Sequence record: NC_070991.1
Reading direction: 5' to 3' (one strand)
Source: Escherichia phage vB_EcoP_WFI101126
DNA: 64,000 nucleotides
Positions 34,256 through 35,566 of the stretch are shown here, piece after piece. The position numbers and the translations under genes are program-made. Every line of letters begins with the position of its first letter. Positions within the stretch are counted from its first letter, which is position 1. The notes below the pieces were generated by a model. The model saw only the letters and a program-made list of their open reading frames with translations, did not search any database and had not been told where the DNA came from.

Positions 34256-35566
34256 TTAGTTATTTGTTTCCATGTCAAAAGAGATTCCACGACCCGCTTC
34301 ATCGGCAAACCGATCATCGAGACTGTGACTGACAGTATCAGCAAGTTCTTCATGAGAGGGAATGTCAAGACTACCTACCACATCTTGAGCAGAAGCTTCA
34401 TCAGTCCAGATAACACGAGAAGGGGCGTTGATATCACCAACAGCAAAACCCTGACCAGAGAACTGGTGACGGCTAACAGTCAAACCATTTGATCGACTAC
34501 GAGAAGGACTAGACATCCATCTCTCCATAGAATCACTTGTAATGCCAAGAGCTTCTTCAAAAGATGTTCTACGAGAAGAGCTTAGATTTCGTGCTTCATT
34601 TGCTCGGCGTCTTGTAGGGGCTACAAACACCCCTTCGATTGCGTTATGACGACTAGGCTCTTCTTCTCTACCAAGCAAATCACCACCCGTGTTAGTCGTT
34701 AAATTTGTCAACCCTTCAGACCAATACGCATAAATTTGACCAGACCCATGAAGACTTGACATAATCTGAATCTCTTCATAGGGGATTCCAAAGAATCGAC
34801 TCATGTCACGGTTAACGCAATACTGAGCACTTGTTGTATCCTCAATAAGAGAAACCTGACCTAATCCATTAACCAGATGACTAACTGGCTGAGGTGTAGG
34901 AAGGTATCGAGTTTGGGCCATATATTGATATGCAACAGATGGAGCTGAGAATCTTAACACTTGTGAATTAGGCCACTTTTTGTGAACGTATCTGATTTCA
35001 CGACTAGAAACAACCACAGGGCAAGGAGCGGTCATAGCTAAATACCCATGAGGGGTCATGAATAAGTTGTCAAGAGTCATCGCACCACGGCACATCATAG
35101 GAAAATTATCCAGAACCTCTTCAATAGAAGTAGGATAATTAAACATGAATTGGATACGAACCCCATTCCACTGAAACTCAATAATATCAGTGAATGTTAA
35201 TTGAGAACCCCCAGCATAGGACTCGTTTGTAGCCTCAGCAAGAAGAGATGAATACTCAATATCTTGTGACTCAAGCCATTCCTTCACGTTACTTTCAATT
35301 TCTCTTCCAAGAGCTTGCCAATGATCAGTTGATGTGAAAGTATTTTGGGTTCTTGGTGTTTGTCCTCTGACAATAAAGATATCAATGTCATGTGGAGCTG
35401 TGTTGTTAAGGACAGCATCACGAACAGCCCCACCAGTAATGATGGGACAGATACCGTCTGGAATCAAGTTGTTGTTAATCAACTGTTCAATGAAGTGACG
35501 ACCAACAGTGATATCAGGTTGTTGAGCAACCTTATCTTCAATTCGGTTAATCGGGATAACAATCAT
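34256..35566 (-). CDS. nucleotidyltransferase with tRNA CCA-adding/poly(A) polymerase head motif and Ser/Arg-rich C-terminal tail
   Basis: ITGGAVRDAVLNNTAPHDIDIFIV matches GGxVRD...DxD of class II tRNA nucleotidyltransferases; C-terminal 150 aa low complexity. Confidence 0.55.
   Translation of the reverse strand: MIVIPINRIEDKVAQQPDITVGRHFIEQLINNNLIPDGICPIITGGAVRDAVLNNTAPHDIDIFIVRGQTPRTQNTFTSTDHWQALGREIESNVKEWLESQDIEYSSLLAEATNESYAGGSQLTFTDIIEFQWNGVRIQFMFNYPTSIEEVLDNFPMMCRGAMTLDNLFMTPHGYLAMTAPCPVVVSSREIRYVHKKWPNSQVLRFSAPSVAYQYMAQTRYLPTPQPVSHLVNGLGQVSLIEDTTSAQYCVNRDMSRFFGIPYEEIQIMSSLHGSGQIYAYWSEGLTNLTTNTGGDLLGREEEPSRHNAIEGVFVAPTRRRANEARNLSSSRRTSFEEALGITSDSMERWMSSPSRSRSNGLTVSRHQFSGQGFAVGDINAPSRVIWTDEASAQDVVGSLDIPSHEELADTVSHSLDDRFADEAGRGISFDMETNN

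Follow-up and report, generated by a model that had tools for sequence, protein, structure and literature searches.

Which reaction does the nucleotidyltransferase encoded in the replication block of Kuravirus phages carry out, and is tRNA its substrate? We have addressed this question in a 64,000-nucleotide stretch of DNA from Escherichia phage vB_EcoP_WFI101126 (record NC_070991.1; this whole stretch is called the window, and its positions are used throughout), a Kuravirus (Gordonclarkvirinae; phiEco32/SU10-like E. coli podophage, C3 morphotype). The gene, at 34256..35566 on the minus strand in the list of open reading frames (ORFs), starts with ATG at 35566 and ends with TAA at 34256-34258. 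It codes for 436 aa plus the stop, is the ortholog of SU10 gp074 and belongs to PHROG 12715; we refer to its product as the NTase. A sequence-only reading of this DNA had described it as a CCA-adding-enzyme-like protein with a disordered tail that could repair or complete tRNA 3' ends or, failing that, act as a poly(A) or other nucleotidyltransferase.

The best explanation of the data presented here is that the NTase is a highly divergent member of the class II branch (CCA-adding enzymes and bacterial poly(A) polymerases) of the Pol-beta nucleotidyltransferases, and it is predicted to be catalytically active. The annotation as such is already known and is not new, as the RefSeq label of the ortholog is "nucleotidyltransferase" and the PHROG 12715 profile of the same name matches the protein over its full length (residues 1-436, E=3e-240). 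The protein represents a small, sharply separated family that fails membership of the CCA-adding enzymes and poly(A) polymerase I (PAP I) in everything except motif A.

Results

Catalytic head and fold

The first 150 residues of the NTase (35117..35566, minus strand) form a catalytic head of the Pol-beta, class II type. This head contains motif A, the metal- and triphosphate-binding signature, as GGAVRD (residues 45-50) followed by D60-I-D62 (35381..35434, minus strand), which was identified by its invariance and by alignment to solved CCA-adding enzymes. No variation was seen at G45, G46, R49, D50, D60, D62 or F64 in 23-29 family members with identities as low as 23%, which bears out the GGAVRD...DxD motif recognized in the sequence-only reading. 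Outside motif A, an acidic residue (D/E) at 127, I128, Q139, P156, D/E190, Y193 and K197 are each conserved in 23/23 members. The sole Pfam match of the NTase was the PolyA_pol head domain PF01743 (E=6e-4), with 20.6 bits against a gathering score of 23; when homologs were searched, SU7 gave no match to this domain and Bas89 gave 13.6 bits. The profile search that had been suggested as a check therefore recovered the head, below threshold, and no body domain.

An AlphaFold model of residues 1-300 built from a diverse alignment (predicted local distance difference test, pLDDT, 86.5; predicted template-modelling score, pTM, 0.83) was ordered up to about residue 285, and the only stretches with pLDDT <50 were 113-120 and 290-300. 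The first of them (35207..35230, minus strand) is a flexible loop located just upstream of the strand that carries D127, and its placement relative to motif A appears to resemble that of the class II flexible loop (PMC2910056). When this model was used in Foldseek, the top 37 matches were all class II enzymes (E ~1e-5 to 5e-4), separated by a clear gap from the remaining matches, and PAP I was the closest structure. The template-modelling scores of these matches were low (0.31-0.42) because the head alone superposes. A nucleotidyltransferase fold, which the sequence-only reading had left to structure prediction, is thus present. The folded core is also under strong purifying selection, with a ratio of nonsynonymous to synonymous substitution rates (dN/dS) of 0.08-0.13.

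The head is followed by a mostly helical, family-specific folded C-terminal subdomain (residues 151-290; 34697..35116, minus strand). Within it we found the motif R189-[D/E]190-x-x-Y193-x-x-K196-K197-W-P (34970-35002, minus strand), whose family-wide form is [RKT]-[DE]-x-x-Y-x-x-[KR]-K. It is spaced +129 from the DxD of motif A, to be compared with +109 for the EDxxR motif in Cca and +124 in PcnB, and this similar spacing suggests that it could be the equivalent of EDxxR. Together with the other invariant residues it may constitute a remodelled nucleotide pocket.

Comparison with CCA-adding enzymes and PAP I

Class II enzymes are defined by their head, neck, body and tail domains, by motif A and by the flexible loop; their motif B (DxxRRD) recognizes the ribose, their motif D (EDxxR) is the amino-acid template that chooses CTP and ATP, and the poly(A) polymerases carry in addition, between motif A and the loop, the signature [LIV][LIV]G[RK][RK]Fx[LIV]h[HQL][LIV] (PMC2910056). 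We searched for these motifs with regular expressions in the window NTase, SU7, Bas89 and 28 further members, using E. coli Cca and PcnB (MG1655) as controls. Motif A was found in every sequence. Neither motif B nor motif D was found at a conserved position in any of 29 members, in SU7 or in Bas89, and the poly(A) polymerase signature was likewise missing from all of them. The controls behaved as expected, since DxxRRD was recovered at 87-92 of Cca and 157-162 of PcnB, the poly(A) polymerase signature at residue 101 of PcnB, and EDxxR in both proteins. Profile comparison with Cca and PcnB (hhalign, low probability) and with PDB sequences aligned about 25 residues around motif A; hhalign to Cca and PcnB aligned motif A only and gave no correspondence for motifs B and D. 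Finally, the helical domains with which class II enzymes hold the tRNA (neck, body and tail) were not found in the NTase by Pfam or by structure match, in agreement with the earlier observation that a canonical tRNA-binding body is missing.

According to this, the NTase differs from the CCA-adding enzymes (B. stearothermophilus 1miv, T. maritima 3h37, human TRNT1 1ou5 and E. coli Cca) in lacking DxxRRD, EDxxR and the neck, body and tail, and in having a folded part of about 285 aa, followed by a disordered tail, where theirs has about 400 aa. It differs from PAP I (PcnB, 3aql) in lacking the poly(A) polymerase signature, RRD and EDxxR, and the C-terminal tails of the two proteins are not homologous, that of the phage protein being net acidic overall. 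Structural similarity was much weaker to the stand-alone CCA-enzyme head protein NP_344798.1 (2la3) and to the MenT/AbiEii toxins, and the NTase, unlike these toxins, has no toxin-antitoxin context. It also gave no match at E<=1 to the PADLOC models, used here as the test for defence and toxin nucleotidyltransferases (MenT/AbiEii, CD-NTase, mCpol). Judged on these sequence features, the NTase is neither a canonical CCA-adding enzyme nor PAP I.

The disordered tail

The last 146 residues (291-436) contain 14% Ser and 10% Arg, and their combined Ser and Arg content of 24.7% tops that of all other 146-aa segments in the 30 ORFs of at least 150 aa in the 64-kb window (mean 12%, maximum 22.6%). In a charge-hydropathy plot the tail falls on the disordered side and residues 1-290 on the folded side. 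The sequence-only reading had described a Ser/Arg-rich disordered end of roughly 150 aa, and the disorder and the composition stand, but only about residues 291-375 (34442..34696, minus strand; net charge +2), a Lys-free segment delimited by composition, charge-hydropathy and dN/dS, are Ser/Arg-rich. The remainder (376-436; 34259..34441, minus strand), delimited by composition and ortholog alignment, is acidic, with a net charge of -11, and terminates in ...RFADEAGRGISFDMETNN. Full-length AlphaFold modelling from 24 near-identical orthologs gave a pLDDT of 32 and thus no independent evidence on the tail.

The dN/dS of the tail is 0.30-0.52, that is, under relaxed purifying selection when compared to 0.08-0.13 in the core, and therefore the tail is translated and weakly constrained. 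Among Kuravirus the tails can be aligned, with many indels, and keep short conserved patches, SFEEALGIT, W350 and the terminal RFADEAGRGISFD. From one genus to another they can no longer be aligned, as shown by tblastn, whose match spans residues 1-264 only, and by the translated sequences, and there is no conservation of the acidic end in Suseptimavirus. Past the position equivalent to residue 290, 8 of 25 representatives have no residues at all and nine more have at most 37, while in one the anchoring motif was not found. On these comparisons, the long tail is thus a lineage-specific add-on that is dispensable in the family and not a catalytic requirement. We also considered the tail as a frameshift product or a separate gene and rejected this, as in 68 records (coverage >=80%) the ORF runs through without a break, the dN/dS is below 1, and the GC content at third codon positions is low and coding-like.

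The C-terminus of E. coli PAP I is rich in Arg (...PRRRTRRPRKRAPRREGTA), and the structural literature on this enzyme gives it a role in RNA binding. The Arg/Ser-rich segment 291-375 recalls this basic disordered C-terminus, but it is non-homologous, is followed by an acidic end and is absent in many members.

The NTase is strongly depleted in lysine, having 4 Lys and 29 Arg with no Lys after K197, so that its K/(K+R) is 0.12 when the median of the ORFs in the window is 0.53. This depletion is family-wide, the tails containing zero lysine, and it is not explained by base composition because the GC content of the genome is 42%. Other Lys-depleted ORFs of the window are found at 5564-6595 on the plus strand and at 25546-25965, 39058-40251, 42808-43908 and 45334-46302 on the minus strand; the set, with the NTase included, has K/(K+R) of 0.10-0.30 and comprises a RimK-like ATP-grasp protein, an amidoligase, two unknowns and a phrog_1265 "membrane protein" of the structural block. 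Separately, the window NTase lacks 17 aa (RFVANNPEVLEPQTRTV) that are present in most Kuravirus orthologs, at about residues 415-420 (34259-34330, minus strand). The missing segment starts with RF, as does the RFADE that follows it in the orthologs, which suggests a repeat-mediated in-frame deletion.

Family and gene neighbourhood

A tblastn search of 50,697 phage records matched 96, of which 93 are named as Escherichia or Shigella phages and three just as "phage". The best match was Escherichia phage Ptacy1532 (98.4%), and the protein is 85-88% identical in the Kuravirus phages SU10, ES17, 172-1, Paul, Bas90 and Bas91, of which the last two infect K-12. Its SU10 counterpart, gp74, was among the proteins detected by mass spectrometry (2014 SU10 paper, PMC4281155). 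For the Kuravirus orthologs the Pfam family PF26128.2 is precomputed, and a scan of the NTase against NCBIfam gave no match. A HMMER search with residues 1-300 in 1.84 billion representatives retrieved only 31 clusters, and a profile search with the core alignment in 5.8 billion proteins returned family members alone (all E <1e-9), with no bridge to ordinary CCA enzymes. The family, whose members have 274-490 aa, is confined to Gordonclarkvirinae-like phages.

The nearest sequence family is phrog_1614, which the window NTase matches with E=6e-8 but only partially (residues 35-155), and we have treated it as a sister family of PHROG 12715, not as membership. It consists of the head-only nucleotidyltransferases of Autographiviridae (phiKMV, LKD16 ORF16, LUZ19 gp16, gh-1 and others), proteins of 165-230 aa without the 150-290 subdomain and without tail. 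Their phages form another family, one with an RNA polymerase of its own. LKD16 ORF16 matches phrog_1614 with E=9.5e-40, has motif A at the same position as the window NTase, carries an [ED]DxxR-like DDAPR, and is encoded between the helicase and the DNA ligase, phrog_1614 genes being located in the DNA-metabolism module of T7-like podophages. By tblastn, relatives were found in 225 phage genomes, including phiKMV, LUZ19 (gp16) and gh-1, and about half of the top structural matches in BFVD were phage "PolyA polymerase head" proteins of 165-230 aa, mostly from Autographiviridae.

The NTase gene belongs to a replication block on the minus strand that is headed by a T7 gp4-like primase/helicase (36119..37909; Pfam DnaB_C, and annotated in SU10, SU7 and Bas89). 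Its upstream neighbour is the 3'-5' exonuclease subunit of a split family A DNA polymerase (35568..36125; PF01612, E=2e-8), whose TAA stop in the window lies one base before the NTase ATG, and its downstream neighbour is a dCTP deaminase (33713..34246; PF22769, E=3.5e-34). We compared nine loci (the window, SU10, SU7, Bas89 and five contigs, 19-101 kb long and of metagenomic or IMG/VR origin, whose NTases are only 28-35% identical), and the order primase/helicase, PolA exonuclease subunit (176-193 aa), NTase and dCTP deaminase was found in all nine, with 0-28 nt between the exonuclease stop and the NTase start. This synteny counts as one observation and not nine because gene order in the lineage is frozen. 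It shows that the NTase gene is part of the core of the replication and nucleotide-metabolism block of Gordonclarkvirinae and has been inherited vertically, and the sister family phrog_1614 lends independent support. Nearby genes of nucleotide metabolism are the dCTP deaminase, ThyX and thioredoxin, with NrdD in relatives.

A longer reading of the gene from a GTG at 35623 was rejected because the conserved N-terminus MIxIP begins at the ATG; this start lies inside the preceding gene and homologs all begin MI(V/x)IP at the ATG. A sigma-70-like site (TTGACC, 18 nt, TATATT; 10/12 matches) precedes the NTase ATG by 13 nt (35579-35608, minus strand), and SU7 has a promoter annotated at the equivalent place. 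Promoter-like sites around the NTase start are no commoner than in shuffled sequence, and we draw no conclusion from them.

Several other features of the region were noted. The family A DNA polymerase is split into the exonuclease subunit mentioned above (185 aa) and a polymerase subunit of 614 aa (PF00476, 23682-25526, minus strand), about 10 kb apart. The primase/helicase has an aromatic end (...ADGASPW), and its homolog in locus L011 (1627-3459) finishes with an acidic tail whose last residue is Phe (...RRDESLPF), which is reminiscent of the C-terminal tail of T7 gp4. Upstream of the primase/helicase (about 38129-47500, minus strand; 1-5438 of the SU10 locus, L001) lies a cluster of amidoligase, glutamine amidotransferase, RimK-like ATP-grasp and gamma-glutamyl cyclotransferase genes, of which the amidotransferase and the cyclotransferase are kept in distant relatives (L004, L017, L018 and L019). 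The ORF at 31935-32546 (minus strand), a "DNA binding protein" in relatives, has a Ferritin/Dps-like domain (PF00210, E=3e-7), which is also called at this position in L017 and L019. HNH homing endonucleases are inserted around the replication block in several relatives (Bas89, L019), and ThyX of L019 (8702-9760) contains intein-splicing and HNH domains, being an intein-interrupted thymidylate synthase.

The tRNA-Arg gene

The tRNA-Arg(UCU) gene (anticodon TCT) was confirmed by ARAGORN at 52606..52681 on the minus strand, 17 kb from the NTase gene, and is not considered part of the system. The end of the gene reads ...AGGGCGC-A-CCA, so that CCA is templated, and the phage tRNA-Arg needs no CCA synthesis because its gene encodes its own 3' CCA. 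SU7 has a tRNA-Arg too. In fact, a single tRNA-Arg is present in essentially all Kuravirus-like phages and has been explained by the use of AGA, which makes up about 20% of the phage Arg codons and is rare in E. coli (YF01 paper, PMC9965538); in the NTase gene, 9 of the 29 Arg codons are AGA. The co-occurrence of the NTase and the tRNA-Arg, two core genes in one lineage, is uninformative on a functional link. No partner for tRNA repair (Pnk or RNA ligase) was found annotated in about 17 kb of SU10 around the NTase gene.

Discussion

Taking these results together, we propose that the NTase may extend the 3'-OH end of RNA, using nucleoside triphosphates (NTPs) and no template, in a tailing activity similar to that of poly(A) polymerases; no other chemistry is known from the class II branch. 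Template-independent transfer to a 3'-OH with RNA as the likelier acceptor is a plausible reading that we place somewhat short of probable, RNA being favoured because RNA ends are the substrate of all characterized members of the branch and because no structure is closer than PAP I. The base specificity should differ from that of CCA enzymes because R-[D/E]-x-x-Y replaces the amino-acid template. The Arg/Ser-rich part of the tail may bind RNA or a partner, substituting the missing body and tail domains as reported for the C-terminus of PAP I, and the acidic end could either fold back onto the enzyme or dock on a partner. More speculatively, if RNA of the host or the phage is tailed in this way, this could contribute to RNA turnover and to the nucleotide supply during replication. 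The fallback of the sequence-only reading, a poly(A) or other nucleotidyltransferase, is closer to this explanation than tRNA repair.

Several observations weigh against RNA tailing by a class II enzyme. The ribose-recognizing RRD of motif B is absent, so that use of NTPs over deoxynucleoside triphosphates (dNTPs) is not to be assumed, and the genes of the family always lie within the replication block, which fits a DNA-related role at least as well. Furthermore, many members lack the tail and no conservation of it is seen from one genus to another, and thus it is not a general substrate-binding device. Similarity in sequence to class II enzymes is limited to the approximately 25 residues of motif A, the Pfam threshold is not reached, and a literature search found no functional study or measured activity for the NTase family or for phrog_1614.

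The repair of tRNA 3' ends, by which CCA would be restored, as a form of counter-defence, on tRNAs of the host or the phage that had been trimmed by host nucleases or by defence systems, draws on the presence of CCA-adding enzymes among the nearest solved structures and on the tRNA-Arg(UCU) carried by every Gordonclarkvirinae genome checked. Moreover, immune systems that attack tRNA 3' tails exist, such as Cas12a3 (PMC12851939), and tRNA acceptor ends can be the target of small body-less nucleotidyltransferases, the MenT toxins (PMC11541572). However, the motifs B and D that specify ribose and CTP or ATP, present in the Cca and PcnB controls, are absent in 29/29 members, as are the neck, body and tail domains, and no match related to defence was obtained. 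The tRNA gene itself is accounted for by AGA usage and supplies its own CCA, the host has Cca, and the NTase gene sits in the replication block. In addition, the sister family is common in phiKMV/T7-like phages, which to our knowledge generally carry no tRNA genes. We therefore regard the tRNA repair proposed in the sequence-only reading as unlikely.

The gene neighbourhood invites the idea of a template-independent transferase linked to the replisome, working on the 3' ends of DNA or primers, possibly with dNTPs, and recruited by its tail to the split PolA or the primase/helicase. The block order, invariant even in members at 28% identity, and the close spacing to the exonuclease gene are consistent with this, as are the loss of the ribose-discriminating RRD and the location of LKD16 ORF16, in a separate lineage, between helicase and ligase. 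The acidic C-terminal tails of T7 gp4 and gp2.5 dock on the polymerase, and the acidic end of the NTase resembles them in principle. But the invariant order comes from one vertical lineage and counts once, DNA is not a known substrate of any class II nucleotidyltransferase, Suseptimavirus does not share the acidic end and many members are tail-less, so a replisome-linked role seems to us improbable. In its widest form, this idea would be that podophages with T7-type replisomes carry an unrecognized replication accessory, a class-II-derived terminal transferase without ribose or base selection for DNA or primer 3' ends or for dNTPs, the Gordonclarkvirinae version being tethered to the split DNA polymerase by its Lys-free Arg/Ser-acidic tail, and that PHROG 12715 and phrog_1614 (hundreds of phiKMV/T7-like genomes) form one functional class; this too we would consider doubtful.

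A third possibility is that the NTase makes a nucleotide derivative, either a modified base that protects the DNA from restriction, as raised in the BASEL paper (PMC11990801), or an alarmone-like or messenger-like small molecule. The Gordonclarkvirinae are strikingly resistant to restriction without a known modification or inhibitor, and the authors of that study pointed to the dCTP deaminase and the NTase (PMC11990801). However, dCTP deaminase with ThyX/ThyA is the ordinary dTTP supply for an AT-rich genome, the best structural matches, with a clear gap above the others, are enzymes of RNA ends, and our literature search turned up no reported modification of Kuravirus DNA. We know of no DNA hypermodification pathway that includes a class II nucleotidyltransferase, and we see little likelihood in this alternative. 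Finally, a catalytically inert scaffold, in which fold and tail would serve as an interaction platform only, could be read into the loss of the canonical nucleotide-selection motifs and the long disordered tail with its short conserved patches (SFEEALG, RFADEAGRG), but with invariant metal- and triphosphate-binding residues in motif A, an acidic residue 127 kept in 23/23 members over deep divergence and a core dN/dS of about 0.1 it is very improbable indeed.

The present analysis does not show a new mechanism. The interest of RNA tailing, or of whatever reaction the NTase catalyzes, comes from its setting, as Kuravirus and its relatives are abundant coliphages with a broad host range that are used in therapy work and are unusually resistant to restriction, and in their replication block the NTase is among the few conserved enzymes to which no role has been assigned. 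The same holds for a head-only NTase of similar structure, which is found in the DNA-metabolism module of at least 225 Autographiviridae genomes of the phage collection. Once found, the substrate of the NTase would fill a gap in the replication and nucleotide biology of podophages, and the enzyme may prove to be a compact template-independent transferase with an unusual nucleotide specificity.

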